Assembly: GCA_050014195.1 (NCBI GenBank)
Contig: JBEKDT010000001.1
Location: 426,296-490,295, forward strand
Reading direction: 5' to 3'
DNA length: 64,000 nt
Origin: Desulfomonilia bacterium
GTDB taxonomy: Bacteria; Desulfobacterota; Desulfomonilia; UBA1062
This document shows, piece by piece, positions 8,062-57,854 of this stretch; positions within the stretch are counted from its first letter, which is position 1, and each line of letters begins with the position of its first letter. Made by a program: the position numbers and the translations under genes. The notes under the pieces are model-generated. The model saw only the letters and a program-made list of their open reading frames with translations, ran no database searches and had not been told where the DNA came from.

Positions 8062-8217
8062 AGAGCCTCCTCGTTATCATTATGCAAACCGACACTTGGG
8101 TAACTCATGCCCTGAATCAGCATATCTTTATACACCCCTTTGGATGCAAAACAAGCCTGCATAACCTCTCGAAGGGAATTATTTGATCAGATTGTTACGT
8201 ATGCCAAAACGATGCCG

Positions 8218-8345
8218 AGTCCTGTCGGATAAGACTAATCCTGCAACACAGGAAACCACTTCGAAATACCATGGTACACATATTTTAATAATCTAATGAA
8301 ATTATTGTGGAATTAATCTTTCGAAAAGTTGGTATAGGAATTGTA
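8218..8345 (+). promoter_or_regulatory. Tandem enhancer motif (8218-8257), AT-rich spacer and sigma54-like promoter TGGTATAGGAATTGTA (8330-8345)
   Basis: 40-bp motif aligns without gaps to copies at 28979 and 31851. Confidence 0.65.
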
Positions 8346-8376
8346 AGTACCCACCCCATGTCAATAATCTTTATTT

Positions 8377-8670
8377 TTGATGAGGAGCTCATATATGTAC
8401 AGGAAGAAGAACCGCGATGAGGTTTCAAAAACAAAGGAATTCACTGCTATCGACCCGTTGTACGATCTCATCGAGATCATGGGTGACCATCTCGTTCGAG
8501 TTTATGAGCACAGGGAGAAATCAAGAGAACAAATAGGTAGCTATAAACAACCCTGCCAGGACCGCCTGATCGTCGAAGCGATAGCTGAATTCCTTATGAC
8601 AGGCAAGTTCCAGCTCAGATGCCCGATCAACGAGTGGGAAAATGTCAGTGTGGGAAGGTTTGAACGCTGA
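8377..8670 (+). CDS. Small hypothetical protein, probable paralog of 29205-29468
   Basis: LYDLIE...FLMTGKFQL pattern shared with the 29205 ORF; start uncertain. Confidence 0.65.
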   Translation: MMRSSYMYRKKNRDEVSKTKEFTAIDPLYDLIEIMGDHLVRVYEHREKSREQIGSYKQPCQDRLIVEAIAEFLMTGKFQLRCPINEWENVSVGRFER

Positions 8671-8680
8671 GGGAGACTTT

Positions 8681-8875
8681 ATGAGCAGGGTTGTCTATCT
8701 TGTGGAAGAAGAATGTATCGGATGCGGAATGTGTCAGGATACATGCCCGGAGGTGTTCAAGCTTAACGAGGAAACCAACGTTGCCGAGGTCATCAAGCCT
8801 GAAGGAGGCCCTGAAGACCTCATCCAGGAGGCCATCGATTCATGCCCTGTCGAATGCATCCATTGGAAGGAATGA
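8681..8875 (+). CDS. Single-cluster ferredoxin
   Basis: CIGCGMCQDTCP and SCPVECI; RBS GGGAG before ATG 8681. Confidence 0.95.
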   Translation: MSRVVYLVEEECIGCGMCQDTCPEVFKLNEETNVAEVIKPEGGPEDLIQEAIDSCPVECIHWKE

Positions 8876-8947
8876 TCGCATCCATATGCGGGCTTGCATG
8901 GCTTCTATACATGCCGGCCACTTTGAGATTGAGATAGAATTCCTCTC

Positions 8948-9364
8948 TTACTCACCGATGATTTTCACCAGCACCCGCTTTTTCCGCCTCCCGTCGAACT
9001 CACCATAGAAGATCTGTTCCCAAGGTCCAAAATCGAGTTTACCATCAGTGACTGCCACGACCGCTTCACGTCCCATGATCTGGCGTTTCAAATGTCCGTC
9101 CGCATTATCCTCACCTACATTATGGTGGTACTGAGAAACAGGGCCGTGAGGAGCGAGCTTTTCGAGCCATACTTCAAAGTCATGGTGCAAACCACCCTCG
9201 TCATCATTGATGAACACACTGGCTGTGATGTGCATTGCATTCACCAGCACGAGACCTTCCTTTACGCCGCTTTCTTTCAGGCACTGCCTTACTTGAGGTG
9301 TGATGTTGATGAACTCGACACGTTTGTCCGTGTTGAACCAGAGTTCCTTGCGAAAGGAATTCAT
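8948..9364 (-). CDS. yjbQ: YjbQ/UPF0047 family protein
   Basis: [31 protein letters not shown]. Confidence 0.92.
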
Positions 9365-9846
9365 CGTTTATCCCCATCATGCCTTCTTAACTCCATTGCC
9401 CATGAGGATACCATTAACCCTTCGTGAAACAGCACTCCTCGGTTTTCGTACTGTTCCGGTTCAAGCTGCCGAAGGTATTCCATCCCTGTAGAGGCCCCGT
9501 CCTCTGAGCTGAATGCGGATAGAATGGAATCTCCTACAACGGCATAAACGCCATACAGCGTCCCAAGGGTGGGGTTCCGCGAGCACCAGGTAGTCGTAAG
9601 GCCGTCTCTTTCAAAGGGGACAATCTCATAGTGATTCGTAAATTCCAAGCGGTTCTCTCCGAGCATCTTCATGGTACCTTCATTCACCCATAGATCGCCC
9701 TGGTGAATGATGCTCACTGTTCCTTCAGCCGCAACAGCTTTACCCTGATTATCTATGTACGTGCCTAACGCATGCCATGTTCCCGGGTGGAACAGAAAGG
9801 TGTGCCTCGTGGTTTCCATGTTTGCCCCCCTTATGAGATACTTCAT
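9361..9846 (-). CDS. Hypothetical beta-rich protein
   Basis: ORF overlapping the yjbQ start (translational coupling); no family recognised. Confidence 0.75.
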
Positions 9847-10019
9847 GATGCATAAAAAAATCTAGTCCAGCATCCACACTGGCCTTGGTGATGATACGAG
9901 AATAATACAGCCGATGTATGAAGCGCAAGTGTTGAACATATTACGTTGCAGCAAAACAGGACAGGAGGACTTGATTATAACAACGGCAATGGAGACAAAA
10001 AGTTTTTGTATCTTGCGGC

Positions 10020-10589
10020 TTACCTTCTTTTCTTATAATCCTTTCCCGAGCAGAAGGCCTTGCCTGCATAGTCTCCAACTTTCCAGTATTGGTTGTCAGG
10101 CATGGTTAAAAGCAGGGGGTCCATCTTCTTGATATCGGGCCTGCCCTCCGTAAGGCATCCCTCACCGGCATAAGCCCCGACAATCTCACCTATGTAGAAG
10201 GTATTGGTAGGGAACTCCATGGTCTTATTGAGCTCGCACTCCAAACACAAAGGGCATTCCTCGATCATGGGTGCAGTTTTGAGCTTGCCGTAGAATACAT
10301 GAAAGAGGCCGGCTTTATCGGCCTTCTCGCCTGATACTATACCGCAGTAGTCGGTGATCTCCATCATCTCGGCGTTGGGGAAATTTATGCTGAAAGTCTT
10401 AGTCTCGGCTATGCCTGGACAGGTGTAGTGGTGCCTGCCCACACCCACGCCGATCATCGGCGGATTCGCATTGACCCGGGTGATCCACCCCAGGGCCATG
10501 AAGTTGGGCTTGGCGTTCACCTGGGTTCCCAGGAGGGTGACCGGCATGGGAAAGACAAACGTGTTCGCCCCGATATCCACTTTCTTCAA
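10020..10589 (-). CDS. Flavin reductase/flavoredoxin family protein
   Basis: PMPVTLLG, PNFMALGW, DYCGIVSG, APMIEECPLCLEC. Confidence 0.92.
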   Translation of the reverse strand: MKKVDIGANTFVFPMPVTLLGTQVNAKPNFMALGWITRVNANPPMIGVGVGRHHYTCPGIAETKTFSINFPNAEMMEITDYCGIVSGEKADKAGLFHVFYGKLKTAPMIEECPLCLECELNKTMEFPTNTFYIGEIVGAYAGEGCLTEGRPDIKKMDPLLLTMPDNQYWKVGDYAGKAFCSGKDYKKRR

Positions 10590-13500
10590 GCACTCTTCCC
10601 CTTCAGATAATTAATCATGGGCTGAGTGACCAGCGGCACCACCTCTCCTATCATGTGGGGCATGAGGTTGGCAACGACCTTTGGCATGAGCTCAGGCATC
10701 TGCTCGCGCATGTAGTCGGGCATGGGGATGCGCTCGGAGACCTTCTTGAGCATAGTAGGCATGACCTTGGGCATCATCATGGGCAGCAGCCTCGGGAACA
10801 GGACCGGGAACATGGGCTTCATGAGGTCGAGCGCACCCGGAATTTTGCCCATAATGCGCATCATGGGCCCCATGCCGAACGGCATGGCAGAGATGAGCTC
10901 GGACCACATGGTACCCATGAGGTCGGCGAACCCCTGCGGTGTCATGAGTGCTATCATGGCCTCGAACACGGCCCACTGCTTCTGCACTTCGGGATTGGGA
11001 TCAGGGAAATCATACCCCAGGGCGGAAGAGGCGAATCGCGCCAAGTCCACTATTTCGAGCGGCATCTTCTTTTTTTCCGCAGTGACCCGGAACTGGAACT
11101 CGCAGCACGGGCACAGGGCCAGGACCTTCTGGGCTCCGGCATCCAATGCCTCGTTCAGACGCGTCTCCCCGATATCGGCGGCTACCAGGGGCTCCTTGAG
11201 GAGGTTGAGCACGCTCCCGCAGCAGTGCGCCTCGGCATGATGATAATCCATCTCCACGAATTTCACATGGGGGATCGCCTTGATGAGGTCCCGTGGCTCT
11301 TCATAAACACCCGATACACGGCCCATGTGGCACGAGTCATGCCAGGTTACCGTAACCTCTTCCTGCCCCGTATCCGGGAAGGTGAACTCGCCCGATCTGA
11401 TCTTTTCCGAGAGGATCTCGCTGTAGTGGCGTGCCGTTATGTCATAATCGATACCCAGCTTTTTAGCCCATGTCGGGTAGACATGTCGCCACATCATATT
11501 GCATGCAGGGCAGGATGTAATAACGGTGTCACTGCCGGCTTCTTTGACAGCCTTAATGTTCCTCCTCATGATCGCTTCAAACACATCCCACTTGCCGGCA
11601 ACCAGCATGGGCGTGCCGCAGCAGTTTTCCTTGTTGCCAACATAGGTGAAATCCACCCCTGCCTTATCCAGCAGCCGCACACTCGCCATGCCGATGTCCT
11701 CTTCCACATAGCTCGCGGTACACCCTGCGAAATAGACGTTCTTGGCCTTTGTGCCGGGGCCGTGCTTCTCCTTGAGGTCTTCTGGGAACCACTTGGCTCG
11801 GTCCTTACGGTAGCCGGCCCATATGTTGCCTTCCTTCATGGCTGCCGCCGACATGATCTCAAAGGGAGGGAAGGTCATCTTCTTTTCCTCATCTACGAGC
11901 TTGCCCCTGAGCTTCATCCAGGAAGGCTCTATGGGAAGCGCTGCAGAGCAACGGAAATTGCAGAGCTCGCAGGTGGTGCAGACCAGTATGGTGTCCACCA
12001 TCTTCTGGTTCCACTCCTGCTTGCCTTTCATATACTCCCGCAACCAGTACCACTTGCCCCTTGGGCTCTGGCTCTCCCATCCGCGGCCGTAGAACTGATC
12101 ACACTCATCCACACAGTAGCCGCACTGGGAGCAGCTGTAGGCATACCAGGCCACATCAGGCGGGATATCCCGAACATCTTTTTCAGGCCTCTCCCCCACT
12201 TCCGTGATAATGGCATAACTGAAAGGCCTGATGAGCGGCTCGAATATGCTCCCCAGTCTGACGGCAGTCCCGATGAGTCCTCCTCCGAGCACCTTGCCGG
12301 GGTTCAGTATCCCCTTGGGGTCGACCTTCTTTTTGAATGACTTCATCCGGGCAAGGCGGTCTTTTCCGAGGACCGCCTTTGCCTTGTTCTTGAAATAGAG
12401 CCCTGTGGCATACGCTCGTCCGCCATATTTTTCAGCAATCTTCATGACCGTGAGCGACAGAGGGAAGACGAAGTTGTAGCTGAACTTCCGCTCATCGCTC
12501 GGGATGAATCCGAGGATGACCACCTCGGGCTTGCCGGATGCCGATTTCCTGATGACCACCCCCTCCTTGACCACGGGCTGCTGGATGGTGCTCTCCACCT
12601 TCTTCATGAAGTCGCCGAAGGAAGACAGCGGGATGACCACTTCGGCGGGTACAAGACTTGGACCCAAGCGCTTCACCACCATGAGCTTGAATCGGTGCTT
12701 CCATTCATGGTACGCAATTTTATCACTCAGGATCTCTGCCTCGCACAGTTTGATGATCTTGCCGAGGCCGCTCATAACCTGCCCTGCGTCCTTCTTACGG
12801 AAGGTGAGCGTGATGATGTAGGATGCAGGCAGGAGCACCCGCTCCTCTGCCGGGTGGCCCCAGTGCTCCATCATAGGTGCCTGGTTCTTCATCTCCGCCA
12901 TCTTCGGGTTGATGAACACGATGGACCATATGGGCAGGCCTTCGGATATCATTGCCTCCATGAGCTTCTGGAGGTCATGGGGGTTCGGACAGCCGATGGA
13001 GACCAGATCCATGGGCTCATCAAGCTGTACCTTAATGGTGATCTCGCCGATCAGCCCGGTTATGCCTTCCGCATCACTGATCATATCGAGATCTTTCCCC
13101 TCGAACACGCTGACCGTACCATCGGGAAGCACGACGCGGGCACTCAGCACGATGTCCCTGAACCAGCCGGCTTCAAACGAACCGAAGCCTGCACCTCCCT
13201 GGGCAAGCCAGCCTCCTGCTGTTGAGCTCGGGTAGCTGGAAGGATAGGTAAGCAGCGTGAGGCCTTTCTTCTTCAGCTCGCGGTCAAGCCCTTCCCAAAC
13301 AATACCAGGCTGGACAGTGGCTGTAAGCTTATCTTTATCGATAGAAAGCACCTTCTTCATGCGGTAGAAATCCACCACGATGCCGTTCTCAACGGGCAAA
13401 ACTCCGCCGTAGCCCGAAGAAGCCTTGCCCCTCGGGGTGAGCGGGATATGGTTTTTGGCGGCCCACATCACCAGTTCTTTCAGCTCCTCTTCGCTCTGGG

Positions 13501-37944: not shown

Positions 37945-40167
37945 CTATTGACCTTGGCGGGCTGATCCGACAAGACGCTGGGTAAACCTGGTGAAGCGTG
38001 TTTTGCTCCGGCTGTTCTCCACGCTGAGCTTGACCGCCCGGGCAGAGCCAATAGTCAAAACCAGTCGCTTGCCTCTTGTCACTGCGGTATAGAGCAGGTT
38101 TCTTGCCAGCATGACATAGTGCTGCGTGTGGACAGGCAGGATCACCGAAGTATATTCAGACCCTTGAGCCTTATGGATGGTCGTTGCATAGGCGATAACC
38201 AGATCATCCGCTTCGGAGGAACTGTATAAAACGACACGATCGTCATACCCGACCTGGAATGAGCCGTCCTTCTCGTTGATGTCCATCAGATACCCGATAT
38301 CACCATTAAAGACCTCCAGCTCATAATTATTGCGGGTCTGCATAACCTTGTCACCAACCCGGAATTCAGTATTGCCCCTCCTGTAAGGCCTGCCGTCCGG
38401 ATTGAGGGCCTGCTGCAAATGCTTATTTAAGTTTTCAACCCCCAGGATGCCTTTATGCATGGGGCTCAACACCTGTACGTCCCACAAGGGATCCAGACCG
38501 TATTTTTGAGGCAGCTCCTCCCTCACCTGGCGGATGATCTCGGCCAGGATCTTTTCAGGGTCTTCCTCTGAAATGAAGCGATATTCTCCGTTGCCGTCTT
38601 GGCTAACCTCCGGCATCTTGCCCTGATTGATGCGGTGGCTGTTGACGATGATCCGGCTCTCCAGACCCTGCCTGAAGATCGTGTCAAGCCTCACCACAGG
38701 GATGATCCCGGATGCGATGATGTCCCTCAGGCAGTTGCCCGGGCCTACTGATGGGAGCTGATCGACATCGCCCACACATACAAGGGTGGTCCCGGGGGTA
38801 ATTGCGCCGAGAAGATGGTGGAGGAGTAAGATATCCACCATGGAAAACTCATCCACAATAATAAGATCTGCCTCCAGGGGGGTTTCAGCATTGCGCTGGA
38901 AAACACCTTGGATAGGATTGAACTCGAGCAGCCTGTGGATCGTGCATGCCTCCTTGCCGGTAGCCTCGGTCATGCGCTTGGCAGCACGACCCGTCGGGGC
39001 ACACAGGAGGATCTGTGCATCCACCTCCTCAAACATGTGGATAATGGCGGTGATCGTATATGTCTTCCCCGTGCCGGGCCCACCCGTGAGGACCATGCAC
39101 GTGTTCTTTGCCGCACACCTTACCGCTTCTCTCTGCAGTTCGGACAGGTTGATGTTATAGCTGTCTTCCATCCATCTGGTCGCCCCATTCGGGTCTATAT
39201 CGGAAGTGCTTTTATCGGCCTCGTTCATCCTCGACAGGTTCGCAGCCGCATGCTTCTCTGCCTGGTGAAGTGAAGCAAGGTATATTGCGTCTTCGGAATC
39301 CGTCTTGCCCTGGACCTTCTCTGTGTACACGTAGTTCATCGACTCGAGTTCTGTGATATTCTCCGAGATCAGCCTCCTGTCGACCCCAAGGAGTCTCGAC
39401 GCCTCCTGCAGCAGGAGACGGCGGGGAAAATAGGTATGGCCCTGTGTTGCGGCAAGCTCGAGTACATAGATGATGCCTCCGCAGATTCTCTCAGGGGCAT
39501 CCCTGGCAATGCCTGTCTTCTCGGCGATCCGGTCGGCGGTCATAAAGCCCACGCCCGGGATATCGACGGCGAGACGGTACGGGTTGTTTCTGATCACGTC
39601 AATCGTATTGTTCCGGTACTTCTTGAAGACCTTGGCAGCGAGGCCGGCCGTAATGCCCTGGCTGTAGAGGAAGACAAACGTATCGCGCAGGTTCGTATGG
39701 TCCTTCCAAGCCCTGAGGATGGCCTCGGCGCGCTTTCTGCCTATGCCGCTTACCTCCCTGAGGCGATACGGCTCCAGGTCGATGATCGTAAATGTGTCCA
39801 TGCCGAAGGCGTCAACGATGCGCTTTGCGAGCTCCGGGCCTATCTCGTCGATCTCGGAGGTAAGATAAGCCTTTATGCCCTCCACGGTCACCGGGGGCTT
39901 GGCCTCGAACTCTACAGCCTTAAATTGCAGGCCGTACTTCGGGTGCTCCACCCAGGATCCCTTGAACTGGTAAAGGTCCCCGATGCGAGGAGAGGGAAGG
40001 AAGGCCACGACGTTTACTTTTGAATCATCATGCCCCTGGAGCCTGACCCGTGCGATGGTGTAGCCCGTATCAGAGCGGTGAAAGCGCACCTGCTCGATCT
40101 CCCCTGACAGGACCACAGGAGTATTCGCTGCGCCGTTCTTCTGTGAGGGTTTCTCAGCACCGCTCAT
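37945..40167 (-). CDS. recD2: RecD2-like SF1B helicase
   Basis: HPKYGLQF, HhH GIGRK, NPYRL, GGPGTGKT, APTGRAAKR, VDEFSM, TIHKAQGSE, LLYTAVTR. Confidence 0.95.
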   Translation of the reverse strand: MSGAEKPSQKNGAANTPVVLSGEIEQVRFHRSDTGYTIARVRLQGHDDSKVNVVAFLPSPRIGDLYQFKGSWVEHPKYGLQFKAVEFEAKPPVTVEGIKAYLTSEIDEIGPELAKRIVDAFGMDTFTIIDLEPYRLREVSGIGRKRAEAILRAWKDHTNLRDTFVFLYSQGITAGLAAKVFKKYRNNTIDVIRNNPYRLAVDIPGVGFMTADRIAEKTGIARDAPERICGGIIYVLELAATQGHTYFPRRLLLQEASRLLGVDRRLISENITELESMNYVYTEKVQGKTDSEDAIYLASLHQAEKHAAANLSRMNEADKSTSDIDPNGATRWMEDSYNINLSELQREAVRCAAKNTCMVLTGGPGTGKTYTITAIIHMFEEVDAQILLCAPTGRAAKRMTEATGKEACTIHRLLEFNPIQGVFQRNAETPLEADLIIVDEFSMVDILLLHHLLGAITPGTTLVCVGDVDQLPSVGPGNCLRDIIASGIIPVVRLDTIFRQGLESRIIVNSHRINQGKMPEVSQDGNGEYRFISEEDPEKILAEIIRQVREELPQKYGLDPLWDVQVLSPMHKGILGVENLNKHLQQALNPDGRPYRRGNTEFRVGDKVMQTRNNYELEVFNGDIGYLMDINEKDGSFQVGYDDRVVLYSSSEADDLVIAYATTIHKAQGSEYTSVILPVHTQHYVMLARNLLYTAVTRGKRLVLTIGSARAVKLSVENSRSKTRFTRFTQRLVGSARQGQ

Positions 40168-40450: not shown

Positions 40451-41332
40451 TTGAAATCCGGAGAAGCCAGCCGAACTGCCGAGTTTAATGCGCTGTTCCG
40501 TGCTATCGAATCATCACGCCGCCCTCGGAGCAAGCGGCTTTTTGAGGACCCTCTTGCCCCCGGCTTCCTCGATAGATTGAAGTGCGCCTATTTTATATCA
40601 CGATTGCCGTTGGTCGGCCGGCTCATACCCTTATTTATCGACTGGAACTGGACCGGGGTCAGGGCCTCGGCCATCGGCCGGACATGCTGGATAGATGAGC
40701 AGCTTCGCGTTGCGCTCGAGGGCGGCATTAGACAGGTCGTAATACTCGGAGCCGGTTACGATTGCCGCGCCTACAGGCTCTCAGGCATCGAACGGACCCG
40801 GGTGTTTGAGCTCGACCATCCAAGTACCCTGGCTGTGAAAGTAAAGCGCCTGAAATATCTCTTGGGCGCTATCCCAAAGCATGTGAGCTTCGTGGAAGTG
40901 GATTTCGACCGGCAGGACTTTGCTTTACTGCTTGAAACTTCGGGATTCGATCGCTTCGTTCCCACATTCTTTCTCTGGGAAGGGGTCATGCACTATCTTA
41001 AAGCCGAGGCCGTCGACATGACTATACGCTCGATCGCGTCCTTGTCCGCACCCGGGAGCCGCCTCGTCTTCACCTACATCCACAGCGGCCTGCTCGACGG
41101 CTCGGTCCGCTTCGGAGACATGGGCCGTGTACCTGCCACACTGCGGAAGACCGGCGAGACGTGGACATTCGGACTTCGTCCGGAGGAACTCCCGGGTTAT
41201 CTTGACGGGCGTGGGTTCTCGCTTGTTACAGACATCGGCTCCACCGAGTACCGGGTACGTTACATGGGGGAGAAAGGCCGCCACCTGAAGGGCTTTGAGT
41301 TCTACCGGGCAGCGCTGGCCGAGGTGAAATGA
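40451..41332 (+). CDS. SAM-dependent methyltransferase (LCM/YktD family)
   Basis: LFEDPLA, QVVILGAGYDCRAYR, FELDHP, WEGVMHYL. Confidence 0.92.
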   Translation: MKSGEASRTAEFNALFRAIESSRRPRSKRLFEDPLAPGFLDRLKCAYFISRLPLVGRLIPLFIDWNWTGVRASAIGRTCWIDEQLRVALEGGIRQVVILGAGYDCRAYRLSGIERTRVFELDHPSTLAVKVKRLKYLLGAIPKHVSFVEVDFDRQDFALLLETSGFDRFVPTFFLWEGVMHYLKAEAVDMTIRSIASLSAPGSRLVFTYIHSGLLDGSVRFGDMGRVPATLRKTGETWTFGLRPEELPGYLDGRGFSLVTDIGSTEYRVRYMGEKGRHLKGFEFYRAALAEVK

Positions 41333-41378
41333 GGATAATTGGTTAGCTTGGTCCGACCCTGAACCTGACAATAATTTT

Positions 41379-41574
41379 AGGGTACCTCTAATAATGCAGG
41401 GGATTTCATATGAATTTATTTTTATTGTCACCCTGGTCCCCACTTTCGTGGGGATAAACTCCAGCGGGGGTCCAGAACTACTCAAAATAACTGGATTCGA
41501 AGCTTCCGCGGGAATGACACTGGGGGTGAGATCGCTCATTCTTTTTCGAGATCATCAATTTTTTGAGGTGCCTT
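41379..41574 (+). mobile_element. MITE-like element, copy 1
   Basis: TIRs AGGGTACCTCTAA / TTTGAGGTGCCTT; near-identical reverse-complement copy at 48667-48839. Confidence 0.85.
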
Positions 41575-42412
41575 TTAACCTTTGAGAGGTGATTCTACTC
41601 AAGGGAATCACTTCGACCTGATTCGACAATCGATAGGTCTTTTCGCCTGGATAGACCACGATCAGACGATCAAGATCCAGATCCGCAAGTGCGATCTTCA
41701 TCGAGGGAGTTAACCGGGGGGCATCCATGCGTTTGCATTCAAGACCGATCTTTCGGCCGTCTATGATCATCAGGAGATCAAGTTCAGCCCCGTTATGTGT
41801 GGCCCAGAAATAGAATTCCCTGGGATGAAATGCCTTAATGGATTCTTCTATCACATAGCCTTCCCAGGATGCACCGCACTTGGGGTGGGTGAGGAGTTTC
41901 TTTTCTGTTCGTATGCCGAGCAAACTGTGTAAAAGGCCCATATCCGTGAAGTAGATCTTGGGTGCCTTAACCTGGCGTTTTTTTAGGTTTGCGTGCCACG
42001 GCATCAGCTGCCGGATCATAAACACACCATCGAGAAGATCGAGGTATCGCCTTGCTGTGGACTCATTAACACCGAGCGTCCGAGCGGGCTCGGCAGCATT
42101 CCAGATCTGCCCATGATAGTGGGCAAGAATGGTCCAGAATCTCATGAGCGTTGTTGTCGATGCCCCTATCCCCATGATAGGCAGGTCACGCTCTAAAAAA
42201 GTCCGGATGAATGCGCTCCTCCAGGAGAAGCTTTCTGATTCGCTTTCAGCAAGGAATGAAAGAGGCAGACCTCCTCTGAGCCAATGTCTGGCCTGGTTTT
42301 CAATGCCGACTTCAGACAGTGAGAACCCGCTCAACGTGATGGTTTCCATTCGCCCTGTAAGAGACTCAGATGACTGCCGGAGCCATTGCCTGGATGCACT
42401 GCCGAATACCAT
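41555..42412 (-). pseudogene. 5'-truncated AAA+ ATPase/DUF4143 protein
   Basis: Begins at the mid-protein motif GSAS..QSSESLTGR; Walker A/B region absent; KAPKIYFTD, GASWEG, ELDL present. Confidence 0.8.
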
Positions 42413-42462
42413 GATATTGCTGCATGTAAAGCGGGAATTTCATGGAAATAGAACGGGGTTGT

Positions 42463-43101
42463 TCAAGTGCCGTCCCAGCCCGAGTCCAGGAGTATCCTGA
42501 TACCCTCAGCCCTGGTTAATCCTATACCCTCGACTTTCTGAAGCTCCTCAACAGAGGCATTCATGACCCTTGATATCGACCCGAAATGCCCCATCAATCT
42601 CTTTGCAAGCCTTGGCCCTATCAGCGGAAGCCCCTGAAGGAGATACAACTGCCGTGACCTGAGCCTCCTGGGCCGATATCCGCCTCGCAAAGGAACAACG
42701 TCCATGTCTTTATCATACTGTGATCCTATCATAATCAAAATGTCTCTGGTGTGTTCCTTTGAGCGGGAAAATATCACCGGGGTATGCCAGATCGTCTGAA
42801 CCGATATGATTGACCCTCTTATGGCATTGCTGTTGAAATCAAGGTCTGTCATGTATGGATCGCCTTCTATGAGAAGGATCGGACGGCGGCAATACTTTTT
42901 CAAATTCGAGAGTTGCCTGAATAACCGCGTGTCAACTAAAGAGATGAGGAAATCCTTTGCGGTCTTTCTCTCGATGGTTATGGAATCGTTGATCACATAG
43001 TCGCCATACGGCAGAGCCTTGACCCGAATCTGGATATCATCTCGTGCAAGCTGGTCAATGAGGCCGGAGTCTTTTTCCCGATAATCTATATCTATCCTCA
43101 T
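42463..43101 (-). CDS. ERCC4 (XPF/Mus81/Hef-type) nuclease with tandem HhH
   Basis: IDYRE, GDY..IERKTAKD (ERKxxxD), LLIEG, LPLIGP, VEGIG. Confidence 0.9.
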   Translation of the reverse strand: MRIDIDYREKDSGLIDQLARDDIQIRVKALPYGDYVINDSITIERKTAKDFLISLVDTRLFRQLSNLKKYCRRPILLIEGDPYMTDLDFNSNAIRGSIISVQTIWHTPVIFSRSKEHTRDILIMIGSQYDKDMDVVPLRGGYRPRRLRSRQLYLLQGLPLIGPRLAKRLMGHFGSISRVMNASVEELQKVEGIGLTRAEGIRILLDSGWDGT

Positions 43102-43134
43102 AGCGATTTCATTTCAGTGAATCATGGGATGAAG

Positions 43135-43638
43135 CTAAAACATTTTCTTGTATTGAATCCTCAAAATCTTTCCCTTATTGATATTGTCTCTAAACACCTT
43201 TTCACGGTGTCTGGGATAGAGATTCTTGCCATGTCTTCCTATCCCCTCCAATGCCTTCTCCACGCTGATGGATGTATGTTCAAGTTCCATATATGAGATT
43301 AGCTGGATGGCGGAATGATCACATGTGCAGAACAGTATGTTCTTCACTGATGTGCTCAGGTAGGCAATGGATTCCGTTTCTCCGGGATCAATTCCGAGGA
43401 AGGCTTCCCGTGCTTCCAGCTTCACCTTCTTCAGCAACTGCTCATCAAGAACATCTACAATCGTAACTTTGTCCTTGATATCAATCGGGAGGGCCTGATC
43501 TTTATATGGATAAAATCGTGCTTCCCGAAAGACTGTACGGACAACGTAAACATCATAACCTCTGGTAATAGCATCAAAGAGCTGAAGCGAGTGAAGGTCG
43601 ATGATCACATCCGCATCAAGCAACACCAATTTTTTCAT
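43135..43638 (-). CDS. PIN-domain protein
   Basis: VLLDADVII, IDPGETESI, CTCD acidic PIN pattern; overlaps upstream gene. Confidence 0.8.
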   Translation of the reverse strand: MKKLVLLDADVIIDLHSLQLFDAITRGYDVYVVRTVFREARFYPYKDQALPIDIKDKVTIVDVLDEQLLKKVKLEAREAFLGIDPGETESIAYLSTSVKNILFCTCDHSAIQLISYMELEHTSISVEKALEGIGRHGKNLYPRHREKVFRDNINKGKILRIQYKKMF

Positions 43639-44764
43639 AGTGCTCTTCCACAAAGCCTTTCCCTGCTAAATAGGAATCTACCTCGTGGCGCTCGATGCTT
43701 AGGTATTGTGCGAACAACCCCCGTGAGATCCGTCCTTCCATCAGGCAGCGGCATGCCAGTGATACATATCTCTGTGGGAACACCGGAGGCGTCTCCTCAT
43801 CCTGCGCTTCCTGCCTGAGAGACCGGTCCAACTCGCGAACCTCGGGGTCTGCAAGATGGGCCTCCACATCCTTTTTCTTCAGTTTTCCAAGATTGACCAG
43901 CCTCCACAGAATGGCTTCCATTGATACCTCAAACTCAAGGGCAAGCTCGATGAGGTCTATGATGCGTATCTCGCCTCCAACAGAGATTTCCCTGAGCGCT
44001 TCCAGAAGAGCTGTCTCGGGCAGGAGCAGGTATGAAGCAAAGATATCCGCGTACTGTTCCGGTCTCGTCTTCTTCCCTTCGCCGATCTCTTTGTGGCTGA
44101 ATAACTCCCAGGTGAGTACATGAAAAAACTCATGTGCCAGGTCGTAGTTCCTTCTCCATGGCTTATCGCTGCTGTTGATGAGGATGCCCACCCCCAGGGC
44201 ATCATCCACGACACAAGCCCCGGATATGGATTTATCGAACTGCATATGAAAGATCCGGTATCTGAGTGTCTGTTCAAGAATGTTCCGTAATTTAGATGCA
44301 GGCCTGCTCCCCAGATCGAGAATGCGGTGGATATCGTGTGCAAGGTTAGCCGCACACTCATATCCATGGCTGTCGAAGTTGGTACGCTCGCAGTTGACCG
44401 GAAGCCTCCGTATCTGGGGCTTTATCTGCAGGAGTCGTTCGAGCTCGGTATAATGCTCCAGGTGCTCAAGGAAGGTACGCTCCTGCTTTTTCACATCCGT
44501 ATCGGGCGATTTTCTCCACAACGGCTTGGGGTCGGGCCTTATGTCCTGATCGAAGAAGTACAGGATGTCGCGTCGGTACAGACGGGCCATTGAGATGAGC
44601 TCGTGAGCATTGATGCTGCGCTTGCCCTTCTCGATGTCCGAGAGGGTCTGGTAATTGTTGAATCCGAGCTCTTTTGAAGCTTCTTTGAGGTTGTACCCTG
44701 CGGTATCCCTGGCCGTTACGAGCCGGTCTACGAGGATCTTCTGCTTTTCTTGTGTCATAAGCAC
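43616..44764 (-). CDS. Xre HTH fused to ImmA/IrrE (M78) metallopeptidase
   Basis: N-terminal HTH (QTLSDIEKGKR), RRNYDLAHEFFH, EQYADIFASYLLLP, FEVS. Confidence 0.92.
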   Translation of the reverse strand: MLMTQEKQKILVDRLVTARDTAGYNLKEASKELGFNNYQTLSDIEKGKRSINAHELISMARLYRRDILYFFDQDIRPDPKPLWRKSPDTDVKKQERTFLEHLEHYTELERLLQIKPQIRRLPVNCERTNFDSHGYECAANLAHDIHRILDLGSRPASKLRNILEQTLRYRIFHMQFDKSISGACVVDDALGVGILINSSDKPWRRNYDLAHEFFHVLTWELFSHKEIGEGKKTRPEQYADIFASYLLLPETALLEALREISVGGEIRIIDLIELALEFEVSMEAILWRLVNLGKLKKKDVEAHLADPEVRELDRSLRQEAQDEETPPVFPQRYVSLACRCLMEGRISRGLFAQYLSIERHEVDSYLAGKGFVEEHYEKIGVA

Positions 44765-44772
44765 CCTTTGAT

Positions 44773-44842
44773 AGATAAGATATTCTTATCTTTTCCATTA
44801 TAATATCGTCAATAGAATAAGATTAATTTATGGTCTTGTCAA
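44773..44842 (-). promoter_or_regulatory. Sigma70 promoter TTGACA-N17-TATTCT with downstream operator AGATAAGA-TAT-TCTTATCT (44773-44791)
   Basis: Consensus -35 and spacing; palindrome just before the Xre-IrrE start. Confidence 0.65.
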
Positions 44843-44962
44843 GAGTTGGTTGTCTGTGAAATGTGTATCTATGTGGTATCAATTTCATGATTGATGATTA
44901 TTTTGGAAAAGGAGATCTATGGGGAGGATCACTCGGTACGACCCGTTAGAAACGTCCCCTTT

Positions 44963-45481
44963 TTACCCCTGCTCCAGGATGAACCGGAAATCGCAATGTG
45001 GTGCTCCCTGCATGATGGTCTGAGTTCGCAACAGCCTTATCCGAGGGTTGAAGCCCCTCGCAAATGGTTCATCCCGGCTGCAGGAAAGGCAGAAGCCGAA
45101 CTCCCTCAAGCCCATCCTGTCATACAGCTCGACATAGCCACAGCGGATCACATCGAAGCTCAGCTTCAGCTCGGACTCTTCACGCATACGAATCACAATG
45201 GCATCATCTTCGGACCATATTTCCTTTACCACGCGGCTCAATTCTCTCAGGGAATTCCCGCCGTACTTATCGGCCATCATCCTGCCTGAGGCCAGCGCAT
45301 CGGCCTGAATAGCCGCAGTTGCGGCTTCCATGGCTTTATCATGACCCAGAACACTTCCGAATCCCCTTATGAGACACGCTGCTATCGGCGCTTGAATCTC
45401 CCGGCGCATGAGATGGCTGATCGCAAGCGAAGGTTGTTGAATGTTCTGACTGTCGGGGCTGTGCTGGTCTTCTCTGCTCAT
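44963..45481 (-). CDS. L-2-amino-thiazoline-4-carboxylate hydrolase-like family protein
   Basis: RREIQA, FDVIRCGY, LSCSRD, RTQTIMQGAPHCDFRF. Confidence 0.85.
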   Translation of the reverse strand: MSREDQHSPDSQNIQQPSLAISHLMRREIQAPIAACLIRGFGSVLGHDKAMEAATAAIQADALASGRMMADKYGGNSLRELSRVVKEIWSEDDAIVIRMREESELKLSFDVIRCGYVELYDRMGLREFGFCLSCSRDEPFARGFNPRIRLLRTQTIMQGAPHCDFRFILEQG

Positions 45482-46830: not shown

Positions 46831-47334
46831 CTATATAGATTCTTGAGCACCAATATCGATTATCCTTTGTTTAAGAGCATTTATAATATCTTGAGGAATT
46901 TCCTTGTATTTCTTAAGCAATCCTTTTACGACGTAATACGGGTTTAAAATCAGTATGTAATTGTAATCACCTGATGCACCTGGTTTCGCCTCAATAAATC
47001 CAAGTTCTGTTAATATTTTCATTCGATCTTTCCATGTCCTTTCTGCTCTTTCTCCTGTAAAGCCGGATTCAAGGGCAAACATTCTTGGATTATCGATTGT
47101 CACCATTGCCTCATCAAAAACATGGTGCCACAAGGCCATATAGGTCGATGATAAGGGTTTGCCTGAAGAGAGATGGTTCATTATGAGGCAGAAGTACGTC
47201 AATGTCCTCGGAATTGTTGTATAACCATCACTGGTTTTTCTGTTCCACAGCTTATCTTCAGGAATCTCATTCCAAAGCTGATCTCTGAGGTCCATTTTTT
47301 TCTTATGAATTCTTTGTGATCTTTTCTGTGACAT
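46831..47334 (-). CDS. Hypothetical protein, probable winged-helix fold (start moved to MSQKRS)
   Basis: AGGAG RBS; GYTTIPR, ESGFTGERAERTWKDRMKILTELGFI. Confidence 0.8.
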   Translation of the reverse strand: MSQKRSQRIHKKKMDLRDQLWNEIPEDKLWNRKTSDGYTTIPRTLTYFCLIMNHLSSGKPLSSTYMALWHHVFDEAMVTIDNPRMFALESGFTGERAERTWKDRMKILTELGFIEAKPGASGDYNYILILNPYYVVKGLLKKYKEIPQDIINALKQRIIDIGAQESI

Positions 47335-47556
47335 TGTTTTCTCCTTTCTTTCAAGTATTATATTGCTGACTAATATATTATTAAGCAAGCAATAACAAGG
47401 ACTTATGTAATACAAATAAAATAAGCATGCCCGTGTTAACTGTTATCTCGATATATCAGTAGGCAAATACATGTCAACTCAATATTCAATAGGAATAAAA
47501 AGGCGTTATAAAAATCAATTGCTCCTATAAATTCAAAATGATTGCGATTTTGCACT

Positions 47557-47612
47557 GTGCTCTATGTGCTTATAGTGCTTATTTGTGCTGCTTGTCCTCA
47601 TGGTGCTCATGT
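47557..47612. repeat. Six degenerate ~9-bp tandem units with GTGCT core
   Basis: GTGCTCTAT GTGCTTATA GTGCTTATTT GTGCTGCTT GTCCTCATG GTGCTCAT. Confidence 0.8.
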
Positions 47613-47737
47613 GGGTTCCAAGGGAGGCACTATCTGATACATAAAATTATGGATCATGATAATTAAAGATACCATTACCTTAAAGAGATGAGGGTCAGGT
47701 CCCAACAATTAACACCCTTCTTGAAGCTATCACCGAA

Positions 47738-48625
47738 TCATGACTCATGAGGCCGTGTCCCTTTGCATTTGGGAAAGGTGGAACAGCCGTAAAACAAGCT
47801 CCCAGCTGTGGGTCCCTTCTTTGCAGTACGCAACACCATAGCGCTGCCGCATAAGGGGCAAAGAATAGGGGTGGGGTTGTCGTGGACAGGCATCTTAATG
47901 ACTGCCGGTTTAACTTTATGGATTGGTATTGCCGTGTTTTTGATTCTGCCGATCATTGCATACAGCTCTTTGCCGTTGACGAGCTGGATGGGGTTGCCTC
48001 TGGCAAAATCTATCGCCTCCTGGGTAAAGGTGCCCGAGGTAATGACGATCCCTCCCGATGCCTTCTTGTCATAGACCACACCGAGCAGTTGCCTGACGAT
48101 GACGACGCCCACGCTCTCCATCTTCCAGTGCTTGCACTGGACAAAGATGGTCTCGCCGTTCTTCTTCAGCACAAGGTCCACCCCGCCGTCTGCCCCGCCT
48201 CCTCCTGTCTCGATGATGGTGTATCCTCTTCTTCTGTATGCCTCGCCCACGAGCCACTCGAAATCCTGCCAGCTCAACGATCGAATCGTTTCCCTGTTCT
48301 TCTGGCTCTTGAAAAGAACGATCCTCTCTTTGCGGTTGAAGACTGAATTCACGAAGGAGAGGCCTGCTATCACGAGAAAAAAGAACAAGGCCGAGTTGGC
48401 GAATGTTGGTCCTGCTTGCGCCAGGTTTCTCAAAAAGACATCGGGTGGAATGCCGTTGGGACCTGGTGCTGCATGGGAATTACCCCACATTGCCGGAATC
48501 GCATACTTCAATAATCCATAGCTGAGAACAGCAAGAATGACGATAATCCACCACGATGCTTCAATCAGGTCATCGGCGAATGAGGTATTTCTTCGTGCCA
48601 TGATCGAACCCTTTCCTAGTTTCAT
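47738..48625 (-). CDS. Mrr-family restriction endonuclease with N-terminal TM helices and C-terminal topoisomerase-type Zn ribbon
   Basis: LSWQDFEWLV, ADGGVDL, VQCKHW, TSGTFT; CPLCGSAMVLR..FYGCSTFPKC. Confidence 0.9.
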   Translation of the reverse strand: MKLGKGSIMARRNTSFADDLIEASWWIIVILAVLSYGLLKYAIPAMWGNSHAAPGPNGIPPDVFLRNLAQAGPTFANSALFFFLVIAGLSFVNSVFNRKERIVLFKSQKNRETIRSLSWQDFEWLVGEAYRRRGYTIIETGGGGADGGVDLVLKKNGETIFVQCKHWKMESVGVVIVRQLLGVVYDKKASGGIVITSGTFTQEAIDFARGNPIQLVNGKELYAMIGRIKNTAIPIHKVKPAVIKMPVHDNPTPILCPLCGSAMVLRTAKKGPTAGSLFYGCSTFPKCKGTRPHES

Positions 48626-57420: not shown

Positions 57421-57498
<78 letters not shown>

Positions 57499-57515
57499 TA
57501 GCAGGGGCGAAGTGG

Positions 57516-57592
<77 letters not shown>

Positions 57593-57602
57593 GAGCATAT
57601 AT

Positions 57603-57679
57603 GGTGAGTGTAGCTCAGATGGTAGAGCGCAGGATTGTGGCTCCTGTGGCCGAGGGTTCGATCCCCTTCACTCACCCCA
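57603..57679 (+). tRNA. tRNA-His(GTG)
   Basis: Anticodon GTG; G-1/C73 signature; CCA end. Confidence 0.96.
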
Positions 57680-57692
57680 TTATTGAAGGGAA

Positions 57693-57769
57693 GCGCCCGT
57701 AGCTCAGCAGGATAGAGCGTCGGACTTCGAATCCGCAGGTCGGGCGTTCGAGTCGCCCCGGGCGTACCA
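57693..57769 (+). tRNA. tRNA-Arg(TCG)
   Basis: Anticodon loop CT-TCG-AA; CCA end. Confidence 0.94.
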
Positions 57770-57778
57770 AAATGGTAT

Positions 57779-57854
57779 GGGCCATTAGCTCAACTGGTAG
57801 AGCAACTGACTCTTAATCAGTAGGTCCCTGGTTCGAGCCCAGGATGGCCCACCA
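57779..57854 (+). tRNA. tRNA-Lys(CTT), probable integration site
   Basis: GGGCCAT..ATGGCCC-ACCA; anticodon CTT; abuts the integrase stop codon. Confidence 0.96.

Follow-up and report, generated by a model that had tools for sequence, protein, structure and literature searches.

The 64,000-nucleotide stretch analysed here (the window; Desulfomonilia bacterium contig JBEKDT010000001.1, positions 426,296 to 490,295) carries three tightly linked minus-strand genes for an Xre-M78 protein, in which a helix-turn-helix (HTH) repressor is fused to a zinc protease, for a PIN-fold protein, and for an ERCC4 nuclease of the XPF type. An initial annotation had regarded the trio as a single candidate defence or DNA-damage system. 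In our judgement the three genes most likely represent two independent units lying side by side, namely an exchangeable Xre-M78/PIN toxin-antitoxin cassette and a chromosomal short XPF-type nuclease that has been inherited with recD2 and the flanking genes. A conserved three-gene system is not supported by comparison of genomes, since none of the 79 ERCC4 loci collected held an intact PIN gene of the window's family and only one held Xre-M78. The relevant features are as follows.

44814-44842, minus strand: predicted sigma70-like promoter, TTGACA-17-TATTCT (promoter scan; counterpart in the orthologous locus L001)
44773-44791, strand not applicable: 19-bp palindrome with perfect 8-bp arms between promoter and start codon, putative Xre operator
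43616-44764 or 43616-44758 (alternative starts), minus strand: Xre-M78, repressor-metalloprotease and probable antitoxin (open reading frame (ORF) calling and Pfam)
43135-43638, minus strand: PIN, 167 aa, predicted VapC-type RNase and probable toxin
42463-43101, minus strand: ERCC4, short XPF-type structure-specific nuclease, ERCC4-(HhH)2, catalytic motif intact (Pfam, alignment and structure search)
43103-44940, minus strand: cassette replaced relative to L001 (blastn, four-fold-site divergence and boundary alignments)
37945-40167, minus strand: recD2, SF1B helicase above the TIGR01448 cut-off, candidate partner of the XPF nuclease

The strongest evidence for two units comes from L001, the orthologous locus of a close relative. 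DNA identity between L001 and the window is 93-96% on both sides and falls to only 69-75%, in patches, across Xre-M78/PIN, resuming at the ATG of ERCC4, which is 96% identical. Differences at four-fold sites amount to 0.12 in the upstream gene, 0.04 in ERCC4 and 0.13 in recD2, against 0.64 (near saturation) in Xre-M78. The Xre-M78 protein of L001 shares 59% amino acid identity with that of the window and 97% with database protein P0363; its PIN gene is reduced to a 33-codon stub, and its ERCC4 is intact, with recD2 directly downstream within ~100 nt. In the window that interval is filled by two genes missing from L001, one of them a truncated AAA-DUF4143 gene and the other coding for an LCM methyltransferase. 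From the swap boundaries and this contrast in divergence we conclude that the pair is an exchangeable cassette and that ERCC4 moves with the chromosome. As a separate observation, ERCC4 itself (42463-43101 in the window, 10001-10630 in L001) differs at 4% of four-fold sites compared with 12-13% in the flanking genes, hinting at a recent exchange of ERCC4 between the two lineages.

The initial annotation had named co-occurrence of the three genes across genomes as a check and missing linkage of ERCC4 to the pair elsewhere as a ground for refutation, and ERCC4 proved largely unlinked to the pair elsewhere. Our genome scan, seeded on an ERCC4 alignment, returned 181 candidates, of which 122 were confirmed and the best 80 kept, giving 79 loci: nine Hef-type (eight with long ORFs, and L076 assigned by context) and 70 short-type, 53 of which retain at least 1.8 kb of upstream sequence. 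Using tblastn together with profiles built from 204 PIN and 40 Xre-M78 sequences, Xre-M78 was found beside ERCC4 only in L001, no intact PIN of the window family was found at any of the 79 loci, and the intact trio was absent both from these and from ten plasmid loci (four ERCC4, six Xre-M78). These four plasmid ERCC4 loci, inspected from a total of 155, yielded neither Xre-M78 nor PIN. Six plasmid Xre-M78 loci, opened out of 22 hits, had no ERCC4 within ~3 kb, and in four of them the adjacent downstream gene matched the PIN profile. As an indirect proxy for linkage, we also counted coincident sizes of the largest contigs (>=5 kb) between hit lists (84 PIN hits, 119 of 478 ERCC4 and 119 of 661 Xre-M78, the window's own clusters excluded), and obtained five for PIN-Xre, one for PIN-ERCC4 and none for Xre-ERCC4 against a null of 0.04-0.12 (0.04 for PIN-Xre). 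What survives of the proposed linkage is two cassette alleles before ERCC4 in one lineage and one further contig that seems to carry PIN and ERCC4. Since the trio fails as a three-gene defence system, it deserves no priority for phage screens as a trio.

The physical layout first described for the operon was confirmed in every respect, with a 23-nt overlap between Xre-M78 and PIN and a 33-nt gap between PIN and ERCC4, as was the presence of one predicted promoter and a palindrome as putative operator, to which L001 has counterparts. The promoter scan found one site where shuffled sequences gave a mean of 4.1, i.e. below chance, so that the promoter is credible because of its position and its conservation in L001 rather than through site count. 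Likewise, stems of at least 6 bp arise in 18% of shuffles of the AT-rich palindrome stretch, and since shuffles alone give palindromes this often, support for an operator comes from the core ATAAGA-N3-TCTTAT, which is retained in the diverged L001 allele. On this ground the palindrome is likely the Xre operator. Read-through transcription into ERCC4 is likely because of the 33-nt gap and because no minus-strand terminator is predicted in 41300-45100; co-transcription of ERCC4 with the cassette is accordingly likely in the window genome and probably incidental. We also considered a PIN-ERCC4 fusion, which was rejected, as the two ORFs are in frame yet separated by two stops, and none of five longer PIN representatives from a non-exhaustive search matched the ERCC4 profile. 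The closest named homologues belong to Deltaproteobacteria/Desulfobacterota.

The active sites that had been read as intact are indeed conserved in the alignments of all three families. In Xre-M78 (Pfam HTH_3, E 5.5e-7; Peptidase_M78, E 6e-12), H211, E212 and H215 of the HExxH motif (HEFFH in the window) and the third ligand E236 are conserved in 33/33 aligned sequences. The protein appears to be a fused repressor-metalloprotease of the ImmA/IrrE, COG2856/DUF955 and RmrA-like kind with a probable antitoxin role. PIN matched nothing in Pfam, NCBIfam, PADLOC (E<=0.01) or PHROG profiles, and tblastn gave no match in plasmids and phages. Its AlphaFold model (pLDDT 93) finds 1y82_A as best structural match (Z 11.1, root-mean-square deviation 3.5, 130 aligned), and the top 39 rows of the structure search are almost entirely PIN chains (PIN/VapC). 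Residues D10, D16, E89 and D109 are invariant in 49/49 sequences and E41 is kept in 44/49 (numbering from 43644), making a VapC-type RNase toxin the probable assignment from the modelled fold. Among its neighbours in the ESM Atlas are clusters in which DUF3368 accounts for 26% and 96% of members. The family comprises 930 representatives at E<=0.001 and is without a Pfam model, 0/71 representatives reaching a curated cut-off.

A toxin-antitoxin pair is the best reading of Xre-M78/PIN from gene content and arrangement, as the initial annotation had also suggested, and its architecture has already been described. Modules of HTH-COG2856/DUF955 with PIN were predicted to be protease-controlled toxin-antitoxin systems (Makarova 2009, PMC2701414; Matelska 2017, PMC5499597), and the window pair resembles them in that a protein fusing an Xre HTH to a HExxH protease is encoded immediately upstream of a PIN gene on the same strand. 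It shares with them the HTH-M78 fusion, the adjacent PIN fold with its acidic site, and recurrence elsewhere (the four of six plasmid loci and the L001 remnant). It differs in that the PIN family has no Pfam model and in that ERCC4 is not mentioned in the accessible parts of those descriptions. The window family may correspond to Matelska's PIN_14, PIN_20 or PIN_26 cluster.

The PADLOC check proposed earlier bore out only for Xre-M78, which matches RmrA (E 6.5e-22, residues 8-298; 13 RmrA profiles match) and capP (E 4e-15), and no model matches PIN or ERCC4. RosmerTA, as far as its descriptions were accessible, has an antitoxin with HTH and zinc peptidase, and its RmrA pairs with diverse toxins (Millman 2022, 10.1101/2022.05.11.491447; PMC10440598). 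The window Xre-M78 is thus an RmrA-like antitoxin by homology alone, whereas its toxin is a PIN matching no RmrT or other PADLOC profile. An M78-family protease with an Xre repressor is also seen in CapP/CapH and ImmA/ImmR; unlike in CapP/CapH, both are fused here in one protein, and the operon holds a toxin. No CBASS genes were found among ten neighbouring proteins scanned with PADLOC. CapP is activated by single-stranded DNA. In the available part of one report pneumococcal COG2856 proteins were not toxic (PMC4257102), and further literature was compared in part (PMC7690668; passing mentions in PMC5303251, 10.1101/2025.11.08.687337, PMC10710014 and PMC8307549). The pair offers a testable case of the protease-controlled PIN toxin-antitoxin circuit, long predicted and little validated, in a large PIN family.

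The bacterial XPF nuclease is the more notable part of the locus: enzymes of its type are known, but not expected in this domain of life. The protein combines ERCC4 (Pfam E 6.6e-28) with HhH and has no helicase domain; D6, R8, E9, G33, D34, E44, R45, K46 and D50 are invariant in 44/44 sequences, and the catalytic motif GDxnERKx3D, containing the ERKxxxD first noticed, is present. Aeropyrum XPF, which aligns over the full length, is the closest solved structure (E 3e-34; Foldseek E 6e-19, 32-33% identity). As in the crenarchaeal short XPF of Aeropyrum pernix (2bgw/2bhn) and in the portion of euryarchaeal Hef that comprises nuclease and HhH, ERCC4-(HhH)2 stands without helicase and with the same catalytic motif. 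Unlike those, it has a bacterial host, and it lies below the NCBIfam cut-offs for archaeal Xpf (119.2 bits, curated cut-off 300) and Hef. By alignment inspection a motif for PCNA interaction at the C terminus is also absent, the tails after the last helix being short and unconserved. Relatives occur in Desulfobacterota, Bacteroidota and Brocadiae (anammox Planctomycetota) and on large plasmids, where 155 plasmids (136 from Pseudomonas) encode a full-length ERCC4-(HhH)2 relative with ~32-36% identity among the 30 listed (e.g. L080-L083). Among phages only nine archaeal-virus records matched, at 23-36% identity. In our tree, rooted at midpoint only and with no donor claimed, all 67 short-type rows of chromosomal origin group on a single supported branch that excludes the nine Hef and four plasmid rows.

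Two reviews, as far as their text was available, confine this family to archaea and eukaryotes with no transfer observed (PMC3424549) and state that XPF has no direct orthologues in bacteria and that short XPF carries a PCNA motif (PMC6320978); the presence of a short XPF in bacteria runs counter to both. Its bacterial occurrence is nevertheless already recorded in annotation, as NCBI labels such plasmid proteins 'ERCC4 domain-containing protein' and a Chryseobacterium paper, seen in part, lists COG1948. A literature search, which left most subscription journals outside its coverage and judged most hits by their listing entries, gave no description of the trio, in line with the initial annotation, nor of the bacterial XPF family or the double-hairpin repeat treated below. 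Among the loci collected, L041 carries two ERCC4 paralogues ~1.2 kb apart (8168-8794 and 10001-10636). In L005, L017, L036 and L071, delta-type ERCC4 appears in archaea- or Bacillota-titled records and Hef in a Binatia-titled record, which may reflect mislabelled bins or transfers.

Helicases of superfamilies 1 and 2 (SF1/SF2) are concentrated beside these nucleases, making up 11 of 136 ORFs adjacent to ERCC4 but 4 of 632 at a remove of at least three genes, and the families concerned are RecD2, YoaA/DinG, RecQ, AddA, PIF1-like, UvrB and SNF2. Helicase adjacency requires at least seven changes on the XPF tree (four partial loci left out), and hence arose in repeated events. If XPF works with RecD2, RecQ, YoaA or AddA, it would constitute a bacterial route of flap or fork cutting parallel to Hef and MUS81 and without PCNA. 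The helicase partners are one of two testable leads, the flanking repeats described below being the other.

On present evidence the two units may work as follows. The Xre domain would bind the palindrome behind the promoter and repress its own operon, and translation of PIN may be coupled to that of Xre-M78 through the gene overlap. A stress or phage signal would switch the zinc-protease domain, leading to self-cleavage of the HTH or to lost neutralisation, where DNA damage as the trigger is suggested by analogy to ImmA/IrrE and a phage signal by analogy to RosmerTA. The freed PIN RNase would then cut tRNA or rRNA, resulting in cell arrest or abortive infection. XPF, judging from homology to Aeropyrum XPF and Hef, would dimerise and nick duplex DNA beside flaps or forks, most likely together with a helicase from another gene (RecD2 here), to rescue forks or to recombine DNA. 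In the window genome, transcripts started at the cassette promoter probably run on into the XPF gene, a consequence of the cassette's position.

Several observations weigh against this division into two units. The sole genome scan was seeded on ERCC4 and covers the best 80 of 122 confirmed hits. A further close relative seems to keep PIN and ERCC4 together (P0003, 83%, and P0088, 84%, both on a 12,211-nt contig), making this linkage older than one genome. Two different alleles of one cassette family fill the slot before ERCC4, in the window and in L001, and the frameshift in the Xre-M78 of L001 may be an assembly error, because the intact 97%-identical P0363 exists. In addition, the gene directly upstream of ERCC4 in L003 is PIN-like but of another kind (DUF5615), and other toxin-antitoxin genes adjoin ERCC4 at several loci. 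As to the helicase partnership, most seeds of the count were themselves genes adjacent to ERCC4. When 44 ORFs were rechecked by motif, the only additions were a restriction-type helicase domain, RuvB and two SecA at a distance, and 59 of 70 ERCC4 loci have no adjacent helicase.

One rival reading is a lineage-specific co-option, in which Xre-M78 became an IrrE/ImmA-like damage switch for a repair operon of ERCC4 and recD2, with PIN carried along as cargo that the operon could do without. The order Xre-M78, PIN stub, ERCC4, recD2 on one strand of L001, where no plus-strand terminator is predicted in 8400-10800, is what this would produce, and the promoter and operator core are common to the two alleles; ImmA and IrrE, according to the accessible text of PMC2701414 and PMC5499597, cleave HTH repressors. 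We regard it as unlikely all the same, because the arrangement has been seen in one small lineage only, the Xre-M78 allele has been replaced wholesale, ERCC4 and recD2 are split in the window by two genes unrelated to them, of which one runs on the opposite strand, and ERCC4 lacks this regulator in 78 of 79 loci.

Two further explanations turn on the neighbourhoods of ERCC4 in other genomes. More loci place ERCC4 at the head of a surface-polysaccharide operon than in any other setting (25/70 loci, with MarR_EPS, UpxY or sugar epimerases/aminotransferases within three genes), and ComEA lies near in 14/70. In 24 loci, mostly at such heads, ERCC4 comes with a covarying double-hairpin repeat of ~41-57 nt, in which a short linker joins a GC stem to an AT stem and which is often present as inverted pairs (L004, L006, L008, L010, L011, L014, L015, L017, L019, L021, L022 and 13 more loci). 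All 384 of 384 cells pair, with two-sided changes in 13 versus 3.2 in shuffles, a figure inflated by related sequences and pattern-based selection. With the repeat model R1, 74 copies are detected across 24 of 83 loci; 62 of them fall no more than 400 nt from ERCC4, in stretches amounting to 6% of those loci, and in 11 loci the gene is flanked on both sides. The repeat, which may be compared with REP elements, matched nothing in Rfam when five of the loci bearing it were scanned, and constitutes a separate, unexplained lead.

From this one may imagine the XPFs of anaerobic bacteria as an undescribed stand-alone family of repeat-associated mobile cassettes, in which the double hairpins around the gene, where UpxY/RfaH-controlled polysaccharide operons begin, form cruciform-like substrates that XPF cuts, moving itself and shuffling surface-sugar genes. 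Repeat-less copies would have been domesticated beside repair helicases, rebuilding a split Hef, and the window copy would have recD2 as its partner and have recently come under a protease-controlled toxin-antitoxin promoter. We put this forward as speculation, and rather doubt it. A related version, where the bacterial XPF is a mobile cassette gene rather than chiefly a repair partner, and where the copy in the window is displaced, stripped of its repeats and of little current function, would account for the many different neighbourhoods, the polysaccharide context, the flanking repeats and the relatives on plasmids. It strikes us as improbable, since the repeat borders other genes of the same operons too (L019, L051, L058) and could be an REP-like element of the whole lineage, most copies used to train the model were close to ERCC4, the protein is strongly conserved, and R1 detects no copy in the window (best E 3) nor in L001.

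Least probable of all, and by our estimate very unlikely, is the conserved three-gene system, where protease-triggered de-repression would release an RNase and a fork/flap nuclease acting together: tight linkage, a single promoter, intact active sites, a defence slot 2-4 kb upstream and the apparent PIN-ERCC4 contig speak for it, but the intact trio occurs in 0/79 genome loci, 0/4 plasmid ERCC4 loci and 0/6 plasmid Xre-M78 loci, the gene histories are discordant as the L001 divergence reveals, and PIN and ERCC4 match no PADLOC model.

Of the remaining features in the window, recD2 downstream and Mrr nearby were placed correctly from the start. The other neighbours are listed here.

40451-41332, plus strand: LCM-family S-adenosylmethionine (SAM) methyltransferase, no counterpart in L001
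41555-42412, minus strand: AAA_14-DUF4143 gene, PDC-S01-like and N-terminally truncated, between ERCC4 and recD2, absent from L001
47738-48625: Mrr with zinc ribbon (Pfam/NCBIfam search)

At four further loci (L015, L031, L032, L055) a member of the AAA_14-DUF4143 family is likewise found near ERCC4. Mrr and a RepL-like hypothetical gene (46831-48625) occupy a variable defence slot further upstream, and the same slot of L001 (1-6850) holds DarTG, PDC-M05 and a type III methyltransferase accompanied by a restriction-like gene. Such a slot near the cassette fits a defensive role for the Xre-M78/PIN pair and says nothing on ERCC4. On plasmids L086, L087 and L089 there is a four-gene array of a hypothetical, a QueC-like, a distant Xre-M78 relative and a PIN-like gene (the L086 array with a PDC-S70 match), and on plasmid L084 an Xre-M78 and PIN-like pair lies between a methyltransferase and DISARM drmA.

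A weak hairpin at 42409-42445 was considered as a degenerate repeat copy and rejected; R1 finds nothing in the window. The motif GGGGCGGAGC recurs between the UpxY/NusG-type gene region and ERCC4 in L004, L006, L008, L011, L014, L019, L022 and L054, a leader motif that presumably resembles the RfaH ops site. An Rfam scan of the window and six loci (five of them repeat-bearing) found tRNAs only; in the window, five tRNA genes (Pro, Arg, His, Arg, Lys) lie at 57421-57854, and from there to the window end the sequence is of low GC (37-45%).

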